A stretch of 64,000 bases of DNA from a virus (IMGVR_UViG_3300026521_000088:32551-96550); one strand, 5' to 3'; numbered from the stretch's first letter, positions 16,609 through 45,284 are shown. Notes: a model not told the origin generated them from the letters alone. Made by a program: numbers and translations.

Positions 16609-16820
16609 TTATATTTATCTACATTTACACTTGATGGTATATAAGTTTAAAATATAATAATTATAACTTATATTATACCTATAAAAATAACTAATATAAT
16701 AAAATATAATTTTTTAAAAGATACTACTATAAAATATTACATAATTTTAAAAAGTATTTTTCTTAAATTTTCAAATTTTCAAATTTTTATTTTTTTCTGT
16801 ATTTTTACAGTATACCCTAT

Positions 16821-18126: not shown

Positions 18127-18408
18127 AAAAATCAAATAAACTCAAATATATAATATAAGTTTTCTGTACTTTGTTATATATTTGAATAAATATTACTCAA
18201 AAATAAAAAGTAGGATTTATATATTTTAAAATCAAATTAACTCAAACATAAGCTATATAATATATAGTCATCAAATGAGTTATAGAGTATAAGATACATA
18301 GGATTAAATTCTAATGCTAAAGTCTATCAAGGTAGGCTTTATGGATTAGACTAGCTGTGCAATAGTGCCAACAAAACCAAATAAAATAACCAAATAAAAG
18401 GAAAACCA

Positions 18409-19151: not shown

Positions 19152-19847
19152 ATGATAAGAAATCAAATATTAGATGGAAAGTTAGCGTTACCTGAAATAA
19201 CAGGTTTTGAAGAAAAATATGGTAAAGATATATATAGTAAGATAGATTACATGTTCCAAGCTATGTTTAGAGCATACCTTAAACAAGGTACAAAAGGTAC
19301 CATATCTTTACCATATTGGATTAAGAAGATAGAAAATGTTAAAGCAGTTAATAGTGCTTTAATAGTTCTATCTAAATCAGGTTGGGTAACATCTGTTTCA
19401 AATCCTAGTAGGAATTGGGCAGAAGCTTACATAAATGAAGATAAACTACTTGAGTATGTAACTAAAGAAGAGTTAGCTCAGGTTAGATTGAACAATAAGT
19501 TTAATGCTTATGTCCTAACAAATACTGAAAAAGCAGTATCTAACAATAAAGTTAGAGTAACTGGAAAAGTTATGGAAACAGGTTTAATTAGAGAAGGTTT
19601 CAGAAAAGCTGGTAATGTTGAGTTTGAACTTGATACTGGTACAATAGCTAAGTACCATGACGAGGTAATAGCTCTAGTGAATAAAGGTATTGAAAAGATG
19701 GCTAAAAAGCATAGCTCTATAAAAGAAGACTTAGCTAATTATGCTATAACAGGTGAAGAAGTAGTTGAGTCTTATATTTATGCTGAAGGTATGACATATA
19801 CTCCTGGACAAAATAGTATAGATTGGAGAGGTAGAAACATCAAGTAA
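19152..19847 (+). CDS. middle fragment of split T7-like single-subunit RNA polymerase
   Basis: ORF ends ...NSIDWRGRNIK*, i.e. the conserved DWRGR motif of T7-type RNAPs; the next ORF continues with the NPxG segment that follows DWRGR in T7 RNAP. Confidence 0.7.
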   Translation: MIRNQILDGKLALPEITGFEEKYGKDIYSKIDYMFQAMFRAYLKQGTKGTISLPYWIKKIENVKAVNSALIVLSKSGWVTSVSNPSRNWAEAYINEDKLLEYVTKEELAQVRLNNKFNAYVLTNTEKAVSNNKVRVTGKVMETGLIREGFRKAGNVEFELDTGTIAKYHDEVIALVNKGIEKMAKKHSSIKEDLANYAITGEEVVESYIYAEGMTYTPGQNSIDWRGRNIK

Positions 19848-19900: not shown

Positions 19901-21136
19901 ATGAGTATGTTAGATAAAATTGGTAATCCAGTAGGTTTTAAGATTATGAGAGCTATGTTAGTAATTCCAGAACAATATAGAAACATTGCAACAGCTAACG
20001 GACTTAAAAATGTGTATCTATTTATAGGTGAGTTATTAGGTTATAAGAATGGAACTGTTCAAGGTAAAATTGAGTTTGGTAGAGAAGCATACTTTAACAG
20101 AACTTTAATTGAAGATATAGAGTTAGATGACTTATATGAGAATATATGGTTAGAAAGACTTTATGAAGATATTGATAGAGTTTTAAATGTAAGAGGAAAC
20201 TATCAGAAAGTTCTAACTTTAAGAAAGTATGAATTAGGTACTATGACTTTAGAAGAATGTGCTAAAGTTATTGAGACATTTGAATATAGAAAATGGTCTG
20301 TACCTATAGAGATAGATGTGTCTGCTAGTGTATTAGCAATCATAGGACTTCTATTAGGGCATAAACCATTTATGAAAAGAACTAATATGATTGGTAACAC
20401 TATTCAAGATGCTTGGAAACATGATGTAGTAACTAACAGAGTACAATTCAAAAGTATTATGAGAATAATTTATGGTTCGTCTATGCCAACTAGCCAAATG
20501 TGGTTAGAGGATGATATTCAGTATACAACTGAAGAGTTACAAGCATTTAGCCAAGAGTTAAAAGATGGTGAGTTAGCTGTAGCTGCTAAATTCAGAGACT
20601 TTCTGATTAAGAATGCTAATATGAAAGAAGAGATGAATATAGTAGTAGACAAAGAAGAGTTTACAATCTACTGCAACAAATTCAGAAATGTAGGTGAGAA
20701 GACTACAAAGTATGATGTATATAATTCAGCTACAAATTCTATCAGAACAATTCAGAATACAAGTACTAAAAAAGTACCAGATTTAAAGAGATTTGCTGTA
20801 AGTACTGTGACTACACTCATTCACAATTTAGATTCACAATGTATGAATAACACAGTAGAAGCAGTAATAGATAAATTTGGATGGGTTATAGACATTCATG
20901 ATGCAATTATAGTTTGTCCAGAAGTTGTAGATTATGCTAGAGATATATACTGTAGTGGTACAGATTCTGATAAACCGAGTTTAGAAAGAATCTATAGAGA
21001 AAGAAATAGTATCCTATCTAAGTATTTTACAAGTATTGGTATTAGACCAAGTAAAATAAAAGAGTGGGGTGAAGTTATGAGTAAAGTAGATAAATTTGAA
21101 GGAGAGTTTAGATGTAACAGAATTGTACTAAAATAA
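19901..21136 (+). CDS. C-terminal (palm/fingers) fragment of split T7-like single-subunit RNA polymerase
   Basis: Begins ...DKIGNPVGFKIMRAML (cf. T7 FNPQGNDMTKGLL); motif A IDVSASVLAII (cf. T7 FDGSCSGIQHF), motif B NRVQFKSIMRIIYGSS (cf. T7 RSVTKRSVMTLAYGSK), motif C IDIHDAIIV (cf. T7 LIHDSFGT). Own SD (aaagggaag) before the ATG. Confidence 0.85.
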   Translation: MSMLDKIGNPVGFKIMRAMLVIPEQYRNIATANGLKNVYLFIGELLGYKNGTVQGKIEFGREAYFNRTLIEDIELDDLYENIWLERLYEDIDRVLNVRGNYQKVLTLRKYELGTMTLEECAKVIETFEYRKWSVPIEIDVSASVLAIIGLLLGHKPFMKRTNMIGNTIQDAWKHDVVTNRVQFKSIMRIIYGSSMPTSQMWLEDDIQYTTEELQAFSQELKDGELAVAAKFRDFLIKNANMKEEMNIVVDKEEFTIYCNKFRNVGEKTTKYDVYNSATNSIRTIQNTSTKKVPDLKRFAVSTVTTLIHNLDSQCMNNTVEAVIDKFGWVIDIHDAIIVCPEVVDYARDIYCSGTDSDKPSLERIYRERNSILSKYFTSIGIRPSKIKEWGEVMSKVDKFEGEFRCNRIVLK

Positions 21137-21139
21137 AGA

Positions 21140-21194
21140 CTTAAGTAGGTGACCTGTATAGGTTACTTGCTTAAGTTATTTTTTTTTTTTTTTT
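21140..21194 (+). terminator. rho-independent terminator after the RNAP gene
   Basis: Imperfect hairpin (cttaagtaggtgacc ... ggttacttgcttaag) followed by a 16-nt T run (21179-21194); a second T13 run at 21265-21277. Confidence 0.6.
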
Positions 21195-22745
21195 GATTTT
21201 AATGAACTAACTTTTTAAGAAGCCAAGTAATAACTAAAGTATCTTTTATAAGGTATTTTAGTTATTTTTTTTTTTTAAATTAATAAACATAGTGGATAGT
21301 ATTTATTAAGATATTAGATATTTATTACTTTTTATTATAAGAAAAAACTTATTGATAAAGAGAGTAAGTAAAATAGATACTAAATAAAAAGGATATGTAA
21401 TAATACAACTGACAAAAAAACTATCAAATACATTACTTGTAGAAAGTTTGTGTGGAGATGGTAATAATATAACTTTACTATGGGTTAAACCTGCTAACTT
21501 ATTTACTACACCACACGATGAACTATTAAATATTAATAGTATGTTATTATTAAATTTAGAAGCATTAATATATAATAAATAAAAGGATATATATGATTCA
21601 ATTAATGAAATTTCAAAATAAAGATTCAAATAATGCAATTAGTAGGAGTAATATAGGCTACTGTAATTATATAACTTCATTGTGGTTTATGGTTATTCTT
21701 CCAGATATTAAATCTATTAATGCTTCTAAAAGAATGTTAGTACATCTAGATGGGTTAATAATGGATAATATAAATGAAAAGGTATATATATATGACACAA
21801 ATACTAAAGACTAAAGGTGGAACAAGTACAAGAATTCAAATTACTAGAACAACTACACCTATATGTGTAACATCATTATGGTATGCATCTCAAACTTTAT
21901 TTAGTAAAAATAGGTTTGATGGTAACATTAGACTACTGATAGATTTAGAAAGATTAGTAATAAAAACTTATAAAGGTGTACTTAATGATTCAATTATTAG
22001 AAAGATATAAAAATGTATCTTATGGGTTAGTTTCATATAATAGATATTTTTCAAGAGTATCTATTATTATAACAAAATTTTCTAGATTTAATGCTAATAA
22101 TACTCTTATAGTATGTTTAAATGATATAGATGTATATGCTAATTTAAAGGATAAAAATGATTAACTTAATTAGATATAACAGTGGGGTTATAGCATACGG
22201 TAATTATTACGATAAACATATAACTTTTTTATGTATAGTCGGTATATGGGAAATAAGTATAAATAAAAATTTGTTAAAAAATTTAGATGAACTAATGCTA
22301 ATAAAATAAGGATTTCTATGTTACAAATAATGAAGATAAAAAATAATGTAAGATTAAATTGGTTAGGTTATAGCTTATATTGTATAACAGATTTACCATA
22401 TTTATCAAATATACAGTTAATTAACACACCTTATGGTAGTAATAATAGGGGTTTATCAACACTTATTAATATGTATACTTTTAAAACATGTAAGGATTAA
22501 AAAATTATGACTCAAGTACTTAAAAGACATGTTACAGATTATAAGTTACATTATTCTAGTATTTTCATAGTAAATAATCATATTTTATCAAAATACTGGT
22601 TTTTCTTAACTGATTGTAGAAAAATAAATCAAAATATATTAGTTAAGTTAGGTTGTAGCAATATAAAAATTTAAGGATATATTAGAAAATCTATTAATAT
22701 TTAGATTTGCTAAATAAATAAGATATATAAAATAAAGGAATTAAA

Positions 22746-24539: not shown

Positions 24540-24749
24540 ATGAAAATATATCAGTATATATTATATCCATATGAAGAATATGATGATGAATTGGGAGAAT
24601 GGGTCACAAACCACGACAATCCAAATAACTGGATAACAGAAGAAAGATTACTACAAGACAATGATGTAAAAAGTATTGAAGAAGTAGACTTGTCAATGTA
24701 CAATGTACAAGAAATAAGCAACAAGGAATATAATGATACAATTAAGTAA
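24540..24749 (+). CDS. small highly acidic protein
   Basis: 69 aa, strongly Asp/Glu/Tyr rich. Confidence 0.45.
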   Translation: MKIYQYILYPYEEYDDELGEWVTNHDNPNNWITEERLLQDNDVKSIEEVDLSMYNVQEISNKEYNDTIK

Positions 24750-24927
24750 AATACCTGAACCTTTTAAGTCTAAATTAGAAGCTACTTTAGGTAATAAGGA
24801 TTACTGTATAATGGAGAGTAGTTATATTTTCCGTTATGAAGATATTAGCACAGATTTTGGTAAATGGCTTATCTCAAAAGGTGAAGAAGAATTTGCTGGT
24901 GAGATTGAGTATAAATTAACAATTTAA
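24733..24927 (+). CDS. small protein, MIQ-start family member
   Basis: Starts ATGATACAA (MIQ) like the paralog clusters; overlaps upstream ORF. Confidence 0.4.
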   Translation: MIQLSKIPEPFKSKLEATLGNKDYCIMESSYIFRYEDISTDFGKWLISKGEEEFAGEIEYKLTI

Positions 24928-25933: not shown

Positions 25934-26019
25934 GCTGCTATGGTGGAAAGGTAGACACTGAAGGCTTAAAACCTTCTGACTGAAAAGTCGTCCCAGTTCG
26001 AATCTGGGTAGCAGTACCA
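25934..26019 (+). tRNA. tRNA-Leu (anticodon TAA), type II with long variable arm, CCA encoded
   Basis: Acceptor GCTGCTA/TAGCAGT, anticodon arm GAAGG-CTTAAAA-CCTTC, variable stem-loop, T arm CCCAG-TTCGAAT-CTGGG, then ACCA. Confidence 0.8.
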
Positions 26020-26021
26020 AA

Positions 26022-26095
26022 TCTCCAATAGCTTGAAGGTCAAGCAAATGACTGTTAATCATTAGTTGTAGGTTCGATTCCTACTTGGAGAGCCA
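26022..26095 (+). tRNA. tRNA-Asn (anticodon GTT), CCA encoded
   Basis: Acceptor TCTCCAA/TTGGAGA, D arm GCTT-GAAGGTC-AAGC, anticodon arm AATGA-CTGTTAA-TCATT, T arm GTAGG-TTCGATT-CCTAC, then GCCA. Confidence 0.8.
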
Positions 26096-26240: not shown

Positions 26241-26667
26241 CCTCCTACAAATAAGTAGTAAAGTTTATAGTAGAAAATTTTTAACATACCTATTTCCTTT
26301 TAAAGTATGTATTTTCATTTTCCTTCCCTTTTTAAATTTTAACTGACAAACTATAATTCTACTATAAACCTACTACTTATTATTTTTAATAAACCAATAT
26401 TTATATTGATTTATTAAAAATAATAATATACATATATACAAGGATTTACTATGTTACAAGTACTTAATCATAAGTATACATTTGCAAGAACAACTACTAA
26501 AGGATATTATGTAAAATATTATATATTTTCTTTTATACATTTTAGAAAACAACTACATCTACTACATATACGCAATTATAATAGTATAAAAACATTAGAT
26601 GAGACTCTATTATCTTTAATATAGACTATAAAATATTATAAATAATTATAATAAATAAAGGAAAATA

Positions 26668-26850
26668 ATGATACAGATAATTGAAAGTACTAAAATACAT
26701 ACTGATACTCTTAGTAGGTTAGACACTAGTCATATTGTGAAAAACATAGTTGATTTTTATATTAGACAAATGCCATATAACAATAATGGAATTATACTAT
26801 TACAACTTACTGCATTAATAGTAGAGGTTACAGATGATACAGAATGTTAA
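26668..26850 (+). CDS. small protein, MIQ paralog family
   Basis: AAATAAAGGAAAATA-ATGATACAG start; ~60 aa; shares MIQ...DFY...LL pattern with neighbours. Confidence 0.5.
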   Translation: MIQIIESTKIHTDTLSRLDTSHIVKNIVDFYIRQMPYNNNGIILLQLTALIVEVTDDTEC

Positions 26851-27031
26851 TACAATATATTCTAAAATGTATGATCCTAGAAACAAGTATAAATTACATT
26901 ATAGTCAGGATACTGAGGATTTTTTTATTAATTGGTACTTATCTTCACAACTTTTAGATAGTAATAGTAGTATTTTATATAAACTAACAGAATATCTACT
27001 AGACTATACACAACAAAATAAAGGAAAATAA
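26834..27031 (+). CDS. small protein, MIQ paralog family
   Basis: MIQNVN... with ...TEDFFINWYL core; overlaps neighbours. Confidence 0.5.
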   Translation: MIQNVNTIYSKMYDPRNKYKLHYSQDTEDFFINWYLSSQLLDSNSSILYKLTEYLLDYTQQNKGK

Positions 27032-27219
27032 TGATACAAAATATAGCTGCTAATACTAAACTTATTCATAAATTTATATCTAAACCACATATTATAAAAA
27101 GTACCTCTGATAATGATTTTTATATACCCAATCTATTATCTGGTACACATACAAGAATACTAGCAGGTATTGTTATGTTAGTAATAAAGGGTGCTGATGT
27201 TGCAAAATATAAGACATAA
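27031..27219 (+). CDS. small protein, MIQ paralog family
   Basis: AAATAAAGGAAAATA-ATGATACAA start; ...NDFYIPNLL core. Confidence 0.5.
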   Translation: MIQNIAANTKLIHKFISKPHIIKSTSDNDFYIPNLLSGTHTRILAGIVMLVIKGADVAKYKT

Positions 27220-27388
27220 TATTAGTAAGAACTTAATAGGTGTAAGATTAGTACTTGATCAAGATAAAAATATTTATATTACTAAAAATATTTTTTATAC
27301 TCAAGTATATATAAAAAATAAAATAAGTAAAGTATGTACTAAACTTTTGAGAAATACAGTCTACCTACTTTATAAAAATACTAAATAA
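27191..27388 (+). CDS. small basic protein
   Basis: 65-aa ORF in the same tight array. Confidence 0.35.
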   Translation: MLMLQNIRHNISKNLIGVRLVLDQDKNIYITKNIFYTQVYIKNKISKVCTKLLRNTVYLLYKNTK

Positions 27389-27406: not shown

Positions 27407-28633
27407 ATGAAAAATGTACTAGATTTAATAAAAGAAGATATGATTTCACCAAAATATAAAAATGCTGATGATGTAATGGATATGGTTATTACTCAAGAGA
27501 CAGATACACTGTTAAATCCAGCATATAATAAAGAGTATAGTAAATTCTTAGATACTCTTAAAGAAGACTTTAAAAAAGACATTAAATTGAACTTTAGTGA
27601 GTCATATGGTCTAGATACACCATTAGAGTTTATAGGAACAGGTGGTGTAGGAGCAAACCTATTATATATGTTAGAACACCATAGAAATTTCACTGAAGAT
27701 AATAATGGTGAAAAATTCTATATACCAAACTCATTCTTTGAATTTGACCATTGGGACTTTAGCAATTTAGCTAGAATACCATTTATACCAGAAAAATATC
27801 GTAAAGGTGAAGATATTGTAGCTAAAGAACTTGCTAACCATGATGCTAAAGAAGAGCAATTTCTAGACCCATTATTTATTGAGGCTAGCCATAATAAGCT
27901 ATCGAAAATAATTCCTTGTGGAGCTATGGATTTAGAAACTAGAAAAGTAATGACTACTGCTAAAATACCATACATCACAGTTACACACAAAGATGATAAG
28001 CTACAAATTAAATTATGTCCTACACCTGTAGAACATGAGTCTTTAATGGCTGAAACATATGGTATGATTGATGTAAACTTCTTGTTACCAGCAGTACATC
28101 TAGCTTCATTCTATATCTCAGATATTATGAATGCTGCAAATACTGATAAAACAGAAGGTTACAATATATCTGCAGTTAAAGCTTATGAGGATATTAAAGT
28201 CTTCAAAGCTGAAATGTTGAAGTATAGAGAGTTAACTATAGCTAATGAAGCTAATAGTAACAATGATATTTTACAAAGTTTTATCTTGTATTGTGCAGAT
28301 ATTGTAAAAGATAGAACTAACTATAATTTAGAAGATACAGATGAGTTACAAAAATTTAGAGTAGAAATTTACACTGAAGTAACTAGAAGACTTTCTAATG
28401 CTGAAGACTTAGAAGCAATGGTCAATAGTTCAAAAGAATCATTTAATCATCTAGGTGGTAAAGAGTATGTATGTACAAGAGCCAAAGAATTGCTAGATCT
28501 AGACACCTTATGGAGTGGTATGGAAGATAGAGTATTACTAGAAATTACACCAGATGATGTAAGAGACTTTCTAGAAGTCAAAAATACAAAGGAAGCTTAT
28601 GAACTTGTTAGAAGACTTTCATCCAATAATTAA
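27407..28633 (+). CDS. E1-like adenylyltransferase (ThiF/MoeB/HesA family)
   Basis: Rossmann nucleotide-binding motif LEFIGTGGVGANLLYML followed by FEFDHWDFSNLARI (cf. ThiF/MoeB VLVVGAGGLGS ... LIDFDVVELSNLNRQ). Confidence 0.7.
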   Translation: MKNVLDLIKEDMISPKYKNADDVMDMVITQETDTLLNPAYNKEYSKFLDTLKEDFKKDIKLNFSESYGLDTPLEFIGTGGVGANLLYMLEHHRNFTEDNNGEKFYIPNSFFEFDHWDFSNLARIPFIPEKYRKGEDIVAKELANHDAKEEQFLDPLFIEASHNKLSKIIPCGAMDLETRKVMTTAKIPYITVTHKDDKLQIKLCPTPVEHESLMAETYGMIDVNFLLPAVHLASFYISDIMNAANTDKTEGYNISAVKAYEDIKVFKAEMLKYRELTIANEANSNNDILQSFILYCADIVKDRTNYNLEDTDELQKFRVEIYTEVTRRLSNAEDLEAMVNSSKESFNHLGGKEYVCTRAKELLDLDTLWSGMEDRVLLEITPDDVRDFLEVKNTKEAYELVRRLSSNN

Positions 28634-29222
28634 AGAATTAGTAGTATATAAAGATATTACTAAATTCTTTAAAAAAACTAGAGAGATTAGAATAAATTAC
28701 ATAACTGCTATATGTGATAATATAGCAGTACCTATTTATTACTATTCAGAGGAACAATGGGGTTCTAGAGCTTATATTGATTATACTATGAAACTGGATA
28801 CAATTAGAGATTTAGATAAATCTATTATAGATTGTAAAATAAAAGAGTTGCAAGAGTTAGGGTTAAATATAACAAGTATTTCATTAACAGATAATCTACA
28901 CACTCATCCAGTAGGTTGTACTAGTTTTTCACCTACAGATTATAATGGTTGTTTAAAACCTGACTATACAGAGAATAGCTTAGGTACTAATATGTTATTT
29001 TCATTTACTGGAGAGCTTTATAAAACTATTGTGAGAGAACAAATAAATGGTGAGTATAAGTATTATAAAGTTAAACAAATAGAAGTAGATGACTTTATAC
29101 CACATATAGATATTAAAGAGGAGCATTTTAAAACTAAAGCATTAACATACCTTACTGTAAATTTAATGAAACAAAAGATAAAGAAAAAACTACATAAATC
29201 AAAAATTAAGCATAAAAGATAA
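28599..29222 (+). CDS. JAB/JAMM (MPN+) metalloprotease-fold protein
   Basis: Exact JAMM motif H-x-H-x(7)-S-x(2)-D: HTHPVGCTSFSPTD, with an upstream Glu (SEEQW); overlaps the E1-like gene by 35 nt. Confidence 0.7.
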   Translation: MNLLEDFHPIIKELVVYKDITKFFKKTREIRINYITAICDNIAVPIYYYSEEQWGSRAYIDYTMKLDTIRDLDKSIIDCKIKELQELGLNITSISLTDNLHTHPVGCTSFSPTDYNGCLKPDYTENSLGTNMLFSFTGELYKTIVREQINGEYKYYKVKQIEVDDFIPHIDIKEEHFKTKALTYLTVNLMKQKIKKKLHKSKIKHKR

Positions 29223-32488: not shown

Positions 32489-32948
32489 ATAGGACTTCAG
32501 TCCTATATATTTTTTAAAGTATTATATATAAATATTTTTAAAAATATACAGGAGTTAGGTAATGGTGCAGGTAGTAAAGAAATATAAGAAAGATTGTTAT
32601 ATTTTGGATTATTCAAATTTATGTATGTCTACAGATAGTTTAGATGTAAACCTATGTTTACTGTATGAGATAGATGAGTTAACATATATACCATAATATA
32701 ATATAAGTTATAAATATTTTATACTAATGTAATGACTTATTATTAAAAACAATATAAATCTAGATAAGAGGGGTATAAATGATACAATTAGTTAATATGT
32801 ATTATACAGAAATAGAAGGTAGTCCTAAAATAAAAGTACATAAATGGAATTACTTATATGCTGGTTCATCATCATTAAATAACAGTATTAATACAGAGTT
32901 GTTATATAGGATAAATTACTTAAAACTACATACATAAAGGTAAGCATT

Positions 32949-33161
32949 ATGATTCAACTAATAAATTTAACAACAGAAGATTTAACTTGTGATGATTTTA
33001 CATATAAAGCTTATATAGATAAACTACATAGGTCTTTAATACATACAAAGTATAAAGATTTTTATACTAATGCTCCATTACTAACACTAAACAATAATAT
33101 ACATTATGAAATTTTATATTTATTTTGTGCTAAATTAACAAATTCTATAGAAAAGTATTAA
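32949..33161 (+). CDS. small protein, MIQ paralog family
   Basis: MIQLINL...KDFYTNAPLL; a further unlisted member (MIQLVNMYY..., ~52 aa) starts at 32779. Confidence 0.45.
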   Translation: MIQLINLTTEDLTCDDFTYKAYIDKLHRSLIHTKYKDFYTNAPLLTLNNNIHYEILYLFCAKLTNSIEKY

Positions 33162-33257
33162 AAATGGTAACATTTATAGCTAATGTAAATAAATTAGGTA
33201 TATAAATACTAATGCATATATACTATATAGTATGTTTTTTAAATACAAAGGAAAATT

Positions 33258-33443
33258 ATGGTAAATAATATAAAACTAAGTACTAATAAATCATATGTAC
33301 ATTTATATTCGGTTAAAAAAAGACTAATAATATATTTACCAAAATTTACCTTATCTGGTATAAATAGGGTAATTTTATTAGAGATAGGTGTATTATTTAA
33401 TAACTTAGAGGGTACAAATGATACAAGTAATAAAATTATATAG
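33258..33443 (+). CDS. small hypothetical protein
   Basis: 61-aa ORF with AAAGGAAAAT SD. Confidence 0.35.
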   Translation: MVNNIKLSTNKSYVHLYSVKKRLIIYLPKFTLSGINRVILLEIGVLFNNLEGTNDTSNKII

Positions 33444-33593
33444 AAATATTGATAAAAAAGAAATAGATATAGGCTTTAATACTTATATTGGTATACTATC
33501 TTATGTTATATTCCCTATATCAACAAATACAAATATAATAAATTATAACTTATTAACAGATAAGTTTATTTATTATACTTATAAAGGTAATTT

Positions 33594-33785
33594 ATGATTC
33601 AACAAACATATCATATTAATAAGTCATATTCATCAAAACTTGTTAAATATAGTTATTATAGTTATTATAATAATAATATAAACATATCTTATTATATTTA
33701 TAAAGAAGTAATTAAAACAGAGTGTAATATAAATGATAATATCCTATTTTTTATAGGTATGTTACTTCGTAAAGTTACACATTAA
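33594..33785 (+). CDS. small protein, MIQ-start, Tyr/Asn-rich
   Basis: MIQQTY...; low complexity, so uncertain. Confidence 0.3.
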   Translation: MIQQTYHINKSYSSKLVKYSYYSYYNNNINISYYIYKEVIKTECNINDNILFFIGMLLRKVTH

Positions 33786-34242
33786 ATTAAAGTATATATA
33801 ACTTTAATCAATTATAAGGAGGTTAGTATGAAACTGATGACATAAACATACATATATATCTATATATATAAGGTAGATTACACACTTTATACATTACATT
33901 TGGTAGACTTTTATGTCTACCGAAAATATATAATAAAGCTTACAAAGGTAGGTTTTTAATATATTTTAAAGAATTAAGATGAATTACATTTTTAGTTATA
34001 TACTAATAACTTTGTTTATAGTCTTAGTATATATGTACAATAATCATATAAATACTATTAGTATGTATAGATATGAAGTTGTATATGATATTAATGAAGT
34101 AGCATATACTAATAATTCTGTAGATGTACATAATTGTATATGTACTACTGAAGGAAATATTTGTGGTAATTTTAGGGTATATCATAACCCATTTTTCAAG
34201 TAAAACATACAACTAATTAAAGTCTGAAATAAAGGATAAATA

Positions 34243-38631: not shown

Positions 38632-39201
38632 ATGTCACAATATAAAAATAGACAAAACAAAAGAAACTATTCGGTAGGAGTGTATCTTGGGAGATTTCAA
38701 CCTTTTCATCATGGGCACAACTCAATAATTCAACAAATTATAATGGATGGTAGAATACCATTATTACTTATAGGACATAAAGGTTCTTTAAATGATAGAC
38801 ATCCATTATCTATAACTCAAATAAAAGAGCTTATTAGATTGTTATATCCAGAAAACCAGGTAATGATTGAATATGTTGAGGATAATGACAGTTGGGATAA
38901 ATGGTACGATACTTTAATGTACAAAATAAATCTAAATACTACACTAAACAATATTGTCATATATTCCCATGAAAAAGAGTGCGACAATACTACTTTTAGG
39001 TTTAGAGATAAATACTTTGTAAATTGTTCACAAAATGAATGTTTTATAGTAGATGATATACCAATAAAATATTGTGAAGAGTATATTGACAATAAAGGAC
39101 AAGTACTATCAGCAACAAAAATAAGAGAAGATAAAGAATATGCTATGCAACATTTAGATGCTAGAATTTTTAAACAATTAGAAGAGTGGAGGTTATGGTG
39201 A
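38632..39201 (+). CDS. nadM: nicotinamide mononucleotide adenylyltransferase (NadM/NMNAT-type cytidylyltransferase fold)
   Basis: GVYLGRFQPFHHGHNSII = (H/T)xGH nucleotidyltransferase motif of NMNATs; track ORF starts at 38596 but the ATG at 38632 has a better SD (ggagacgaaaaaATG). Confidence 0.7.
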   Translation: MSQYKNRQNKRNYSVGVYLGRFQPFHHGHNSIIQQIIMDGRIPLLLIGHKGSLNDRHPLSITQIKELIRLLYPENQVMIEYVEDNDSWDKWYDTLMYKINLNTTLNNIVIYSHEKECDNTTFRFRDKYFVNCSQNECFIVDDIPIKYCEEYIDNKGQVLSATKIREDKEYAMQHLDARIFKQLEEWRLW

Positions 39202-39803
39202 AAACAATTAAAATATTAAGTAAAGAGCCGCTTGCAAAACCAAAGTTTCTTAAAACAGAACTTGTAACTTACCAAAAAGATAATGAAAAACCAAGACAAT
39301 GGGAAGTTTTACAAGGATTTGATACAGTACACATTCTCATTAAAAATACTGATACAAACAAGTTCTTGTTAGTCAAGCAAAACAGAATACCTGTAGCTGT
39401 CAAAAATACTAATCAAGGTATTTGTATAGAATGTTGTGCAGGGATTATTGATAAATACCAACATTCAAAATCATCTTTATATCAAGCTAAATTAGTAGCT
39501 AGAGATGAGATACTTGAAGAATTAGGTTATCATAAAGAAAATTTAAAGGATATTGAATTAGTAGACACATTACTAAGTTCAGTAGGCACTGTTGGTTCTA
39601 AACAATACTTGTTCTATTGTGAAGTTAACGATTCTGAATATACAGGACAACATTTAGAACCAGATGAAGAAATTGAAGTTATTGAATATACAAGTAATGA
39701 TTTAATGGATTTAATATTTAAAGAGTATAATACAGACTCGGTGACTAAATATTTATGTTTAAATCATATTGGAGAAATATATAACATAAAGGATAATTTA
39801 TGA
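39186..39803 (+). CDS. Nudix hydrolase (ADP-ribose pyrophosphatase-like; NatV C-terminal-domain equivalent)
   Basis: Nudix box-like ...LVARDEILEELGYH...; overlaps the NMNAT gene by 16 nt and the NadV gene by 4 nt. Confidence 0.6.
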   Translation: MEVMVKTIKILSKEPLAKPKFLKTELVTYQKDNEKPRQWEVLQGFDTVHILIKNTDTNKFLLVKQNRIPVAVKNTNQGICIECCAGIIDKYQHSKSSLYQAKLVARDEILEELGYHKENLKDIELVDTLLSSVGTVGSKQYLFYCEVNDSEYTGQHLEPDEEIEVIEYTSNDLMDLIFKEYNTDSVTKYLCLNHIGEIYNIKDNL

Positions 39804-41239
39804 GTAAACTATTAGAATCAACATTAATAACAGGAGATAGTTATAAATATGGGCATCCATTTCTATTAAGAGATGATATAGCTTATCAATATAACTATAT
39901 GGAAGCAAGAAAAGGCGATGATATAATATTTGTAGGTATGCAATATTATATTAAAAAGTTTCTAACAAAAGTACCATCAAAGAAACAAATTAAAAAAGTT
40001 AAAAAGATGGCATTAAAGCATGGAATTTATTTTGATGAAAAGATGTGGAAATACATCAATAAATTAGGATATTATCCAATTAGAATTAAAGCAATACCAG
40101 AAGGAACAAAAGTACCATCAGGTGTACCATTAGTTACTTTTGAAAATACAGATCCAGAATGTGTAGGATTAGTAGGTTTTCTTGAAACTCTGTTTATGAA
40201 AGTATGGATGCCAACATCGGTTGCTACGCAAAGCTATGAAGTTAAACAGATGTTATTAAAGTATGGTTCACCTGAATGGGCTGAATATGCTTATCACAAT
40301 TTTGGTTCTAGAAGCACAACATCATTAGAACACGATATGATTGCTGGATACGCACACCTAACACAATTTAAAGGAACTGACAGCTTTTCTTCACTATTCT
40401 TTTGCGAAAAATACTATAATCAAGGGAAAGAACCAGCAGGATATTCAGTATTAGCAACAGAGCACTCTGTTACTACAATGAATGGTATAGAAAACGAAGA
40501 AGAGTTTGTATATAAAACATTATTAAATAATCAAAATAGTCAAATTATCTCATTTGTTGGAGATTCTTATGATATTTATAAATTTACAGATTTTGTAACA
40601 AATCCAAACGGTAGAATAAGAAAATTACTAAACAAAAGAAAAAACCAAAAACTTGTAATTAGACCAGATAGTGGAGAACCAATTAAAGTACTTAAAGGTG
40701 TTATTGATATAATGAAAAACAATGATTGTTTTAATTCTGGAATAGAAGGTAAACTATTGTCGCCTAAATACGGAATTCTTTGGGGTGATGGTATAACACA
40801 AAAAATAATTGAACACATTCTACAATACTTCACTAATGAATCTTATAGACAATTCATGATAAATAGTAGTACAGACATACTAGCAACTAAAATTAAAAAT
40901 TTACAATTACTAGCAGCAGAAAACTTTGTATTTGGTTCTGGGACAGACTTAGTTAATTCAAAAGATAGAGATACTTATGGATTTGCTATTAAATGTTCAT
41001 CAGTTACACTTAAAGATGGTACAGAGCTAGATGTATTCAAAAATCCTATAACTGCACCTACTAAAAAATCGAAAAGAGGTAGAGTAGAAACAGCATTTAA
41101 CACAGCAAAGAAAACATATAGAACAACTAAAGGTGGGTATAAAGATATAGAAACGAAAGCGTTACAGTTAATATTTGAAGATGGTAAGTTATATAATGAA
41201 ACTTCCCTAGAAAACATTAGAAGTAACAGTTTAAAATAA
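39800..41239 (+). CDS. nadV: nicotinamide phosphoribosyltransferase (NAMPT/NadV)
   Basis: N-terminal TGDSYKYGH (NAMPT DSYK motif), 479 aa, typical NAMPT length and composition. Confidence 0.75.
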   Translation: MSKLLESTLITGDSYKYGHPFLLRDDIAYQYNYMEARKGDDIIFVGMQYYIKKFLTKVPSKKQIKKVKKMALKHGIYFDEKMWKYINKLGYYPIRIKAIPEGTKVPSGVPLVTFENTDPECVGLVGFLETLFMKVWMPTSVATQSYEVKQMLLKYGSPEWAEYAYHNFGSRSTTSLEHDMIAGYAHLTQFKGTDSFSSLFFCEKYYNQGKEPAGYSVLATEHSVTTMNGIENEEEFVYKTLLNNQNSQIISFVGDSYDIYKFTDFVTNPNGRIRKLLNKRKNQKLVIRPDSGEPIKVLKGVIDIMKNNDCFNSGIEGKLLSPKYGILWGDGITQKIIEHILQYFTNESYRQFMINSSTDILATKIKNLQLLAAENFVFGSGTDLVNSKDRDTYGFAIKCSSVTLKDGTELDVFKNPITAPTKKSKRGRVETAFNTAKKTYRTTKGGYKDIETKALQLIFEDGKLYNETSLENIRSNSLK

Positions 41240-42758: not shown

Positions 42759-43910
42759 ATGACAAAAGTAGAGTTAAAACTAATAGATGCGAATGTTAAA
42801 GCTCAGTTACAACAAAAAGAAGTAGGTCCACTATTTATAGTTGGGTTGCCAGGTACTGGTAAAACTTCAAGTATTGTAACATTAGCTAATACTAATAATA
42901 TAAATATTTTAGTAGTATCAGCACCTACATTAACTGTGGAAGTCCTTACAGGTTTACCTCATGATAATATAGTAGATACTAACCAAGGTAAAAAAACAGT
43001 AGTATCTTGGAGTGTACCTGAGATTATTGCTCAAGCTAATAAATTAAGTGAAGACAAAGATACTATCTTACTTATTGATGATTTTCATGCTACACCTAAG
43101 CATATTCAAGCTTATTTTTTTAAATTGTTATTAGGTAGAAGTATTGGTTCACATAAATTAGAAGATAATATTGCTATTTTAGGTACTATGAATAATAGTG
43201 AAGAAGCTGGTTTTTATGGTATTAACTCTGCTATTCGAAATAGGTTAGCTGTGCTAGATGTTAAGTTTAATTTCGATTATTGGTTTAAAAATTATGGAAA
43301 TGGCTTACATTATATTATAAAATCATTCTTAACATTATATAAAAGTTCAGTACAAGAAGAAGAAAATACATCATTAGAAGGTTATGCTACAGCTAGAAGT
43401 TGGACATATTTTAGTAATATGTTAAAAGAACTAGATGATGAATTTATAAAAGTTAATATTGTTAAATTAGCTAAAATGTATATATCTACAGATATGGCTT
43501 ATAAACTAGAACAACATACTATATATATGGATCAATTTGATTTTAAATATAAAGTAGAGACTAGAGAAGATATTGATTTAGAGTCTATAGATCAAATGCA
43601 AAAGATGATGTTTTCATATATTCTTAACTTTATTGATACTGTACAAGATGCTAAATATTTATTAGAAATAATGAGTAAAAATAGTAAAGATGATGCTTTT
43701 ATTGGATTTATTGTAGGTGAGTTGTACTCTATATATCTAAGTGATAAATACTCAGATGGTATTAGATTTATGGTTGATACATTATTAGATTTTAAAATTA
43801 TTAAATCTAATTATCCTAATACTTCTACAGCAGTATTAAATACTGTAAAAAAAGTTAAATTTAAAAATTTAAATAGTGCTATGGAAATAGCTACTAATTT
43901 TATATTATAA
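42759..43910 (+). CDS. AAA ATPase (MoxR-like)
   Basis: Walker A FIVGLPGTGKTSSI, Walker B ILLIDDFH; followed directly by a vWA protein as in MoxR-vWA pairs. Confidence 0.6.
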   Translation: MTKVELKLIDANVKAQLQQKEVGPLFIVGLPGTGKTSSIVTLANTNNINILVVSAPTLTVEVLTGLPHDNIVDTNQGKKTVVSWSVPEIIAQANKLSEDKDTILLIDDFHATPKHIQAYFFKLLLGRSIGSHKLEDNIAILGTMNNSEEAGFYGINSAIRNRLAVLDVKFNFDYWFKNYGNGLHYIIKSFLTLYKSSVQEEENTSLEGYATARSWTYFSNMLKELDDEFIKVNIVKLAKMYISTDMAYKLEQHTIYMDQFDFKYKVETREDIDLESIDQMQKMMFSYILNFIDTVQDAKYLLEIMSKNSKDDAFIGFIVGELYSIYLSDKYSDGIRFMVDTLLDFKIIKSNYPNTSTAVLNTVKKVKFKNLNSAMEIATNFIL

Positions 43911-43919
43911 GGGTATATA

Positions 43920-45284
43920 ATGATACAAATTAAACAAGAGATTATTAACAAATTTACTACTAAAGTAGTTACTGAATCTAATATTATTGCTGATGTTAAT
44001 AAAACTTCAGCAATATTTATTAAACTACTATCCCATTTTAAATTTAATTTTAAATTTAGAAAAGTAGAAAATTTAAATTCATATCTTTTTACAGATATAC
44101 AAAAAAAGTATAAAATTATGGTAAATACATCTAAAACTAAAGCAGATATTATTGATGTAAATATTTATTATACTAAAGAGAAAGAACTACAAGAGATATT
44201 AAAAGTACTTGATGTATCAAATAAACCTGATGGTTATTGTGGTTTTATCGTGACTAGAGAGTTATTTAAAGTGTTATTAGGACATACAACTTATACACAT
44301 TACAATAAATATAAATATTTAGTAACTTCTAAACTTGATGAAAAATATGCTTATCTCGTTTTAGTTATTGCATCTAATTTATATATTGAGCATATTGTAG
44401 CTGGTATATGTAATGATAATAATGTACAATTTGATACAAGTAAATTAAAATATCTAGATGATATTTTATTAAAAAATATAAATTCATATCCTAGAGTTAT
44501 TAGAGATGTAGTTGAACAATTAAATATTATTTTGTCTGTTAGTACAAATTTATATAAAGATGATGTTATCTTATACTCTGATAAATTGCTAGAATATGAT
44601 GAACACACTATTTTTATTGCAGAAGTATTAGAAACTACAATTAACTCAGAAGTAAGAGGTTTTACAAGTTCTCCTATTTTTAAAACAGCATTAGCTTCTA
44701 AAAATACTGTAAATACAGACTGGATTAAAGAGCTAAAGAAACATATTAGCAGGTTTACTTATGAACGAACTAATGATATTGAATCTACTTGGGGTAAGTA
44801 TAACAATACTTATAAAAATATCTTTACTGCACCTGGAGCTAATTGCATTACACATAAATTAAAATTTGTACTATCTATTGATCAATCAGGTTCTATGACA
44901 AATGAAGATATTGCTTTGATTCAGGAAGTTATGAAAGTTATTGCAAAAGATACTGCTGAAGCTACTATTATTTTACATGATACAGAAATTGCTGATATTA
45001 TTGATATAGTAGATTTAGAAGAAGATGAGTTAAAGAAAAAACTTATTGAATCTACACATAGAGTGTGTACTGGTGGTACTTCACATAAGCATGTATTTGA
45101 ATATCTATCTACTTTAACAAATTTAGAAGATATTCTATATATATCTTTCAGTGACAATTATAGCGATATTGAAGAGGCTTACAAAAAATATAGAAAATAT
45201 ATGAATAAACTAGATTGTATATTTTTATCTACATCTGATAAAAAAGTAAATATAAATAGTATAAAAAATATTAAGATATTGTAA
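43920..45284 (+). CDS. von Willebrand factor A (vWA) domain protein
   Basis: MIDAS motif LSIDQSGSMT (DxSxS) in the C-terminal half; starts with the ATGATACAA (MIQ) motif. Confidence 0.55.
   Translation: MIQIKQEIINKFTTKVVTESNIIADVNKTSAIFIKLLSHFKFNFKFRKVENLNSYLFTDIQKKYKIMVNTSKTKADIIDVNIYYTKEKELQEILKVLDVSNKPDGYCGFIVTRELFKVLLGHTTYTHYNKYKYLVTSKLDEKYAYLVLVIASNLYIEHIVAGICNDNNVQFDTSKLKYLDDILLKNINSYPRVIRDVVEQLNIILSVSTNLYKDDVILYSDKLLEYDEHTIFIAEVLETTINSEVRGFTSSPIFKTALASKNTVNTDWIKELKKHISRFTYERTNDIESTWGKYNNTYKNIFTAPGANCITHKLKFVLSIDQSGSMTNEDIALIQEVMKVIAKDTAEATIILHDTEIADIIDIVDLEEDELKKKLIESTHRVCTGGTSHKHVFEYLSTLTNLEDILYISFSDNYSDIEEAYKKYRKYMNKLDCIFLSTSDKKVNINSIKNIKIL

Follow-up and report, generated by a model that had tools for sequence, protein, structure and literature searches.

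A lineage-specific family of small, translated-looking genes in three tandem arrays of an uncultured phage

The 64,000-nucleotide stretch of IMGVR_UViG_3300026521_000088 analysed here (32551-96550; hereafter the window, with positions counted from its first nucleotide) belongs to an uncultured, very AT-rich phage (GC content of the window: 26.7%) and carries numerous small genes whose products begin with Met-Ile-Gln or a variant of it. We found that they are translated-looking genes of one lineage-specific family, present in about 18 copies and organised in three tandem arrays: 17 ATG-initiated open reading frames (ORFs) of 44-73 amino acids (aa) and one in which ATA stands for ATG, at 21397-22674 (array 1), 26451-27388 (array 2) and 32562-33785 (array 3; Table 1). 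Matches to the family came from three sources only, both when 5.8 billion proteins were searched with a profile and when 1.84 billion representative proteins were searched exhaustively with HMMER: the window phage itself, a strain variant (L005, L006 and L007; 92-99% nucleotide identity) and a sister phage (L008 and L009).

The family was first noticed at 26668-27388, where a preliminary description had reported four consecutive, partly overlapping small ORFs. These are indeed present, with overlaps of 17, 1 and 23 nt, the ORF at 26834 sharing 17 nt with the ORF before it and a single nucleotide (TAATG) with the one after it. An independent gene caller also predicts all four on the ENA and Joint Genome Institute (JGI) contigs. 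The DF[YF] pattern ascribed to them was recovered at residues 29-31 of 26668, 26834 and 27031, and at exactly the same residues in the L008 orthologue. The common ATGATACAR start applies to three of the four, but 27197 begins with ATGTTGCAA, which encodes MLQ. Likewise, the near-identical upstream sequence AAATAAAGGAAAATA precedes 26668 and 27031 only, while 26834 has GTAGAGGTTACAG instead. A second cluster exists at 32779-33785 as described, and the tRNA neighbours were found as tRNA-Leu and tRNA-Asn at 25934-26095, the only two matches of an Rfam scan.

To define the family, the ATG-initiated ORFs of the window were scanned, down to a length of 35 codons, for the pattern M-[ILVT]-[QN]-x-h. 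The scan returned 17 small ORFs, all on the plus strand between 21.5 and 33.8 kb and all with an AAAGG-type ribosome-binding site; random codons in this base composition are calculated to include about 8% stops. Together the family makes up around one fifth of the plus-strand window ORFs of at least 45 codons, with a summed ORF length of about 3.3 kb. The members listed at the outset were thus real for the most part but too few: array 1 (6-7 genes) had been mostly missed, as had the genes at 26451, 32562, 33258 and 33418. Of 671 stop-to-stop segments, the probable eighteenth member at 21397 gives the best non-training match to the family hidden Markov model (HMM), with 11.0 bits over HMM positions 2-53; it is a pseudogene unless its translation begins at a non-canonical start. 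The 32562 gene was a recurrent top "background" match in the leave-one-out HMM test. Conversely, 24733, which had been counted as a member, receives no support from the family HMM, its score being reached by 37 of 300 shuffles. A further candidate, 34243, was rejected, having the N-terminus alone in common with the family and no HMM support either. Within the arrays, 8 of 14 junctions overlap, by 1-26 nt, and translational coupling is therefore suggested.

Table 1. Family members, a doubtful ORF and associated DNA features of the window
Feature	Coordinates	Strand	Description
Terminator-like hairpin	21138-21177	+	stem of 18 pairs, then 16 T in a row (to 21194), directly after the RNA polymerase gene
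Probable 18th member (array 1)	21397-21582	+	ATA replaces ATG; IIQLTKK...NINSMLLLNLEAL
Array 1 member	21593-21814	+	73 aa, MIQLMK...; open in strain variant L007
Array 1 member	21792-22010	+	72 aa, MTQILK...; 23-nt overlap with preceding gene; gene caller picks the same start
Array 1 member	21985-22164	+	59 aa, MIQLLE...; leave-one-out HMM score reached by 0 of 300 shuffles
Array 1 member	22157-22309	+	50 aa, MINLIR...
Array 1 member	22318-22500	+	60 aa, MLQIMK...
Array 1 member	22507-22674	+	55 aa, MTQVLK...
Doubtful ORF	24733-24927	+	64 aa, MIQLSK behind a similar cassette; N-terminus only
Near-perfect palindrome	26377-26426	.	24-nt arms, 96% complementary, 2-nt spacer; between tRNA-Asn and the 26451 gene
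Array 2 member	26451-26624	+	57 aa, MLQVLN...; missing from sister contig L008
23-nt identical stretch, copy 1	26653-26675	+	AAATAAAGGAAAATAATGATACA; ribosome-binding site and first codons
Array 2 member	26668-26850	+	60 aa, MIQIIE...; DFY at residues 29-31; orthologue P0017 43% identical
Array 2 member	26834-27031	+	65 aa, MIQNVN...; DFF at residues 29-31
23-nt identical stretch, copy 2	27016-27038	+	identity with copy 1 grows to 26 nt in the strain variant
Array 2 member	27031-27219	+	62 aa, MIQNIA...; DFY at residues 29-31
Array 2 member	27197-27388	+	63 aa, MLQNIR... (ATG TTG CAA); 23-nt overlap with preceding gene
Terminator-like hairpin	32489-32506	+	after the SPFH gene, before array 3
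Array 3 member	32562-32696	+	44 aa, MVQVVK...; L009 orthologue 65 aa
Array 3 member	32779-32937	+	52 aa, MIQLVN...
Array 3 member	32949-33161	+	70 aa, MIQLIN...; DFY at residues 38-40; P0020 orthologue 61% identical
Array 3 member	33258-33443	+	61 aa, MVNNIK...
Array 3 member	33418-33597	+	59 aa, MIQVIK...
Array 3 member	33594-33785	+	63 aa, MIQQTY...; ATGA overlap with preceding gene

The N-terminal signal is one at the protein level. Its common form is M-[ILTV]-Q-[LIVN]-[LIVM]-[KNER], and the information specific to the family falls on positions 1-2 of codons 2-6, while the wobble position is free. Indeed, codon 2 is either ATA or ATT when it encodes isoleucine, or is swapped for leucine (TTA/TTG), threonine or valine, and glutamine is written as CAA or CAG. 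Given this pattern, the start constitutes an amino-acid motif, not a repeated regulatory element. At the nucleotide level, the window has 11 copies of ATGATACAR where 2.9 are expected, and four of the 20-mer AAAGGAAAATAATGATACAR where 0.18 are expected when as many as 3 mismatches are tolerated. The duplicated translation-initiation cassette that had been proposed as a family feature was not borne out: the upstream information content of the family genes equals that of 53 other phage genes, both groups having AAAGG at -11 to -7, and only 26668 and 27031 share the 23-nt stretch, a cassette that is also kept in the L008 orthologue. Among the same 53 comparison genes, an M-I-Q start was found only in the unrelated HNH-like gene at 43920. 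This HNH-endonuclease-like gene (43909-45284, 454 aa) starts with MIQIKQ behind AAGGGTATATAATGATACAA and lies outside the family by its length and by the HMM; the start motif is therefore not exclusive to the family.

Similarity between the members extends past this start. In the MAFFT alignment, the N-terminal motif is followed by an aromatic-rich centre and then by N-x-x-[ILV]-[LIV]-x-x-[LIV], which opens a C-terminal helix. This motif, in the form N-x-x-h-h-x-x-h and with a pattern chosen post hoc, is present in 14 of the 18 members, while 2000 shuffles gave 5.0 on average and never more than 12; in 13 members it sits in the C-terminal half, at residues 30-48. With residues 1-5 removed, three of the six focal pairs (26668-26834, 26668-27031 and 27031-27197) still align co-linearly (p 0.002-0.003). 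When all 153 pairs of members are considered, 7% have z >3, the top pairs being mostly neighbours of the same array. Leave-one-out HMMs built without the N-terminus make 6 of 18 members individually significant. Furthermore, an HMM trained on window members alone picks up orthologues in the independent contigs L008 and L009, along with additional members (independent E-values of 5e-6 to 2e-14).

Since this similarity past the N-terminus is weak yet significant, we regard the members as paralogues of one lineage-restricted family. The significant pairs, the common helix motif and the matches in independent contigs uphold the tandem ~60-aa paralogues of the preliminary description, and the alternative considered there, a lack of similarity past the first three residues, is contradicted by significant alignment beyond residue 5. 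Tandem Repeats Finder detected no gene-length DNA tandem repeat, and the longest stretch of DNA similarity between paralogues links the 5′ ends of 26668 and 27031 (55 nt, 73% identity). The family proteins have an isoelectric point (pI) mostly of 9-10. Transmembrane peptides were considered and rejected, the maximum 19-residue hydropathy being below 1.5.

The narrow distribution was examined further through syntenic and gene-by-gene searches. In the protein database a 104,075-bp contig carries family members, and the window sequence is also present on a 13-kb ENA contig. Megablast of window positions 20-35 kb against 50,697 phage records gave zero matches. No family members were found in the more distant syntenic relatives L013 and L014 (E1-like protein 38% identical) or in the RNA-ligase relatives L010-L012, and nothing family-like was seen upstream of the RNA polymerase of IMGVR 3300028534_000018, where 15 kb were available. 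IMG/VR scans with the E1-like protein and with the SPFH protein retrieved no relatives. The scan with the RNA polymerase retrieved one contig, which ends just after the polymerase gene and in which a terminal repeat was sought and not found; a metagenome scan gave the same contig. We found nothing on this family in the literature.

Between the close relatives, gene content and sequence both change rapidly. The sister-phage orthologues are 34-83% identical with intact ORFs, and at the nucleotide level the family genes of the window and L008/L009 are 68-70% identical as against 82-98% for neighbouring genes. After its SPFH gene, L009 has 9-10 family genes where array 3 of the window has 6, and L008 is without the 26451 gene. 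In the strain variant, the 22507 product retains MTQVLKR and KINQxILxxLGCS while its centre is mostly different, and 26834 encodes 60 aa after a 1-bp deletion 16 nt before its stop codon.

Several smaller observations concern the same regions. At 33818-33846 of the window, a five-codon ORF (MKLMT) stands behind a strong AAGGAGG ribosome-binding site, at a place where L009 has a 50-aa ORF (MKMMNVLKNN); this mini-ORF at 33829 may be what is left of an array member since lost. Compared with window positions 31.5-40.3 kb, L009 is a mosaic, with 98% identity at 39199-40297, 82-84% in the SPFH gene and at 38677-39198, and 68% in the family genes; window positions 33.8-38.5 kb are swapped for other genes in L009, which also has a second, diverged copy of the 39195-39803 gene. 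Finally, array 2 shows 8 differences over ~720 nt between the window and L005, against 56 over the 1227 nt of the adjacent E1-like gene. Because the array is far more alike between strains than this neighbour, a recent recombination or sweep limited to array 2 is suggested.

The sequence of the family evolves near the neutral rate while its reading frame is strictly kept. In the ten family genes covered in the strain variant, we counted 16 synonymous and 93 non-synonymous differences, corresponding to a ratio of non-synonymous to synonymous rates (dN/dS) of 1.40, against 0.11 for flanking genes. Similarly, the six array-3 genes compared with the sister phage have a dN/dS of 0.88 at a proportion of synonymous differences (pS) of ~0.3-0.47, where the neighbouring SPFH gene has 0.16 and two others 0.15 and 0.06. 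In neither comparison did the family show the ratio well below 1 that marks purifying selection. Nonetheless, none of the 109 substitutions that separate the window from the strain variant creates a stop codon, whereas all ten ORFs stayed open in 0 of 5000 simulations that followed the observed substitution spectrum. The single indel is the 1-bp deletion in 26834.

The substitution spectrum is ordinary and rich in transitions, whichever the direction (A>G 25, G>A 19, C>T 17, T>C 7). As the substitutions are not adenine-specific, we discarded the idea that a diversity-generating retroelement targets the arrays; neither 16-36 kb nor 21-34.5 kb contained a template-like DNA repeat, although no search for a reverse transcriptase was made.

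What these genes do can be approached from their position. The terminase, tail and virion proteins are encoded on the minus strand at window positions 1-16.6 kb, and the plus strand holds nearly all window genes from ~16.97 kb onward; the family arrays, on the strand opposite to the terminase, tail and virion block, therefore lie in the non-structural arm. The three arrays sit between the RNA polymerase and the replication genes, which are N4-like, and the plus-strand arm also encodes an RNA ligase, a nicotinamide phosphoribosyl transferase, helicases, a DNA polymerase and a primase. By tblastn, the DNA polymerase is ~28% identical to homologues from Alteromonas podoviruses and N4-like phages, with nothing closer.

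We infer that the family consists of early or middle accessory proteins acting on host factors, a reading to which we give about an even chance. Many anti-defence and host-takeover proteins have been discovered among the small, fast-evolving accessory genes that form runs in the early regions of phages, and a host-takeover or anti-defence role for the present family is plausible, as it fits the non-structural position, the fast evolution and the turnover of copy number. In such a scheme, local tandem duplication would expand the family (growth by duplication is what we infer), and a process of birth and death would gain, lose and truncate genes between close relatives. Each copy would retain its ORF, the short N-terminal motif and a C-terminal amphipathic helix, the remaining sequence drifting near the neutral rate. 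Overlapping stop and start codons would couple the translation of many family genes, and the diversified small, soluble, mostly basic proteins would bind host factors for host takeover or counter-defence.

A more specific version of this proposal, which we put forward tentatively and think rather doubtful, is that of a gene-accordion-like phage family. One scaffold, in about 18 copies, would be repeatedly diversified into binders or decoys against variable host defences or factors, with selection holding the frame and the ends of the scaffold and leaving the surfaces free. The family is at present an orphan in an uncultured phage. It matters because the usual runs of early genes are unrelated to one another, while here one scaffold has been amplified to about 18 copies, with an unusual selection signature in which the frame is strictly held, the sequence is nearly free and turnover can be measured between close relatives. 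If the copies bind different host targets, they would represent a natural library on one small scaffold, and if the binding reading is true, also a compact system in which to follow the birth and death of phage genes.

Several results weigh against a host-directed function. First, the family dN/dS is not significantly different from 1 (binomial p=0.13), and in recent comparisons even the motif regions are only mildly constrained (dN/dS of 0.71 for residues 1-8 and 0.81 for the helix, with 1.03 for the centre and 1.39 for the tail); positive selection is thus not demonstrated. Second, neither homology nor predicted structure points to a specific function. Searches of Pfam-A, PHROGs v4 and PDB sequences gave no significant match for the family and none near the curated thresholds, and by these comparisons the family belongs to no described protein family. 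Two AlphaFold runs, on alignments of 17 and 23 paralogues, reached predicted local distance difference test (pLDDT) values of only 62 and 59; helices were predicted, and among them only the C-terminal one with moderate confidence (~73-84). Third, as to the timing of expression, a sigma-70 scan is uninformative, with 144 sites against 152 expected; the phage encodes its own RNA polymerase.

Known systems offer partial parallels. The closest are T4-like hyperplastic early regions and the SPO1 host-takeover module, in which small early genes with strong ribosome-binding sites follow one another. As in these regions, the genes described here are small, packed, often overlapping and non-structural, are restricted to a narrow clade, vary between relatives and are presumed to act on the host. 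Unlike them, since the T4 and SPO1 regions consist mostly of unrelated small genes, the ~18 genes here are all paralogues within a single family. Among large eukaryotic DNA viruses, the multigene families (MGF) of African swine fever virus and the amplification of K3L in poxviruses are cases of expanded virus families tied to host-range and immune-evasion conflicts. Tandem duplication, fast divergence and copy-number change between close relatives are shared with the present family; however, the latter belongs to a phage with a 104-kb genome, its proteins are much smaller, and any link to host defence would be conjectural.

Outside viruses, the lpl cluster of Staphylococcus aureus is described as an array of tandem lipoprotein paralogues with conserved gene ends and junctions, a variable centre and a copy number that varies between strains (PMC2568036). 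The phage family resembles it, as gene ends are better conserved than the variable centre and copy number differs between relatives. It differs from this bacterial lipoprotein cluster in that nucleotide conservation at junctions is limited to two genes and conservation is otherwise found at the protein level.

The most serious competitor, although we think it unlikely, is that translation of these genes matters while their protein sequence hardly does. The ORFs would then serve operon-leader coupling or mRNA protection, or would form a nearly neutral nursery of young duplicates. A dN/dS of 0.9-1.4 that does not differ significantly from 1, constraint that is mild even in the motif regions and the lack of a confidently predicted fold are all in line with this explanation. 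So is the rapid gain, loss and truncation of genes, as illustrated by the 26834 deletion, the ATA at 21397 and the mini-ORF remnant at 33829. However, paralogues that are less than 25% identical retain an N-terminal motif of amino acids whose wobble positions vary freely, a C-terminal helix motif in an equivalent relative position and a similar length. Because these motifs persist at such divergence, long-term purifying selection on the product is required. Moreover, ~3.3 kb of filler would be costly in a capsid-limited genome. Were the sequence nonetheless irrelevant, the arrays would show clearly that translation as such can be selected for.

Considerably less probable is the packaging of these basic proteins in the virion and their ejection with the DNA, the N-terminus being a targeting signal as in T4 internal proteins. 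A capsid-targeting sequence at the N-terminus is common to the T4 proteins IPI-III, whose loci differ strongly from one T-even phage to another. A short conserved N-terminus on variable, mostly basic small proteins encoded at polymorphic loci is what the two sets have in common. Nevertheless, the family genes lie in the early/middle arm and not in a late region, on the strand opposite to the terminase, tail and virion genes. Their products also have no conserved glutamate or [LI]-x-E protease site after the MIQ motif, and their similarity extends past a leader to the C-terminal helix, which is common to members as well.

We consider it very improbable that the members are ubiquitin-like substrates of neighbouring E1-like and JAMM-motif proteins, with an N-terminus resembling the first strand of ThiS, MoaD or ubiquitin. 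The ubiquitin and ThiS N-termini are MQIFVK and MQILFN, which a MIQLIK-type start resembles, and array 2 lies directly upstream of the two candidate enzymes. The first, at 27407-28633, is a 408-aa protein with a GTGGVGAN Rossmann motif, and a four-sequence profile of it matches the E1 enzyme UBA5 weakly (E=0.014). The second, at 28599-29222, is a 207-aa protein whose gene overlaps the E1-like gene; it has an exact JAMM motif, HTHPVGCTSFSPTD (HxHx7SxxD, read by eye), and no match in Pfam or PDB sequences. The E1/JAB module placed next to the array in the preliminary description is thus weakly indicated by the UBA5 match and the motif read by eye. As regards the family, no member has a C-terminal or near-terminal Gly-Gly, the sole moderately confident structural element is the C-terminal helix and not a strand, two of the three arrays are not beside the E1/JAB pair, and L013 retains the E1-like gene without any family member. 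This explanation is weakened by the absent Gly-Gly, by the helix at the C-terminus and by the L013 arrangement. Equally improbable is a nucleotide-level regulatory footprint, namely a ribosome-binding or promoter cassette at the start of unrelated ORFs: the 23-nt identity of 26653-26675 with 27016-27038 (26 nt in the variant), kept in the L008 orthologue, speaks for it, while ordinary upstream information, varying Ile/Gln codons and significant similarity beyond residue 5 speak against it.

With respect to transcription, each array appears to head a transcription unit. Array 1 is preceded by the RNA polymerase gene and a hairpin, array 2 by the tRNAs and a palindrome, and array 3 by the SPFH gene and a hairpin (Table 1). 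Between the hairpin with its T run (21138-21194) and array 1 lie ~200 nt of non-coding sequence, and the palindrome at 26377-26426 has a partial match in L008. The sequence TATAATATAAGTT could be a promoter element: it occurs exactly at 16665-16677 (minus strand), 18149-18161 (plus strand) and 32697-32709 (plus strand), at least the copies at 18149 and 32697 lying between annotated ORFs. When mismatches were allowed, it was not enriched over shuffles.

Finally, the single-subunit RNA polymerase that precedes array 1, identified by PHROG matches, is split in the window, into 19152-19847 (231 aa) and 19901-21136 (411 aa). In L002 (9302-11227), the only distant IMG/VR relative, the polymerase is encoded by one 641-aa gene, the C-terminal part of which is 57-58% identical.

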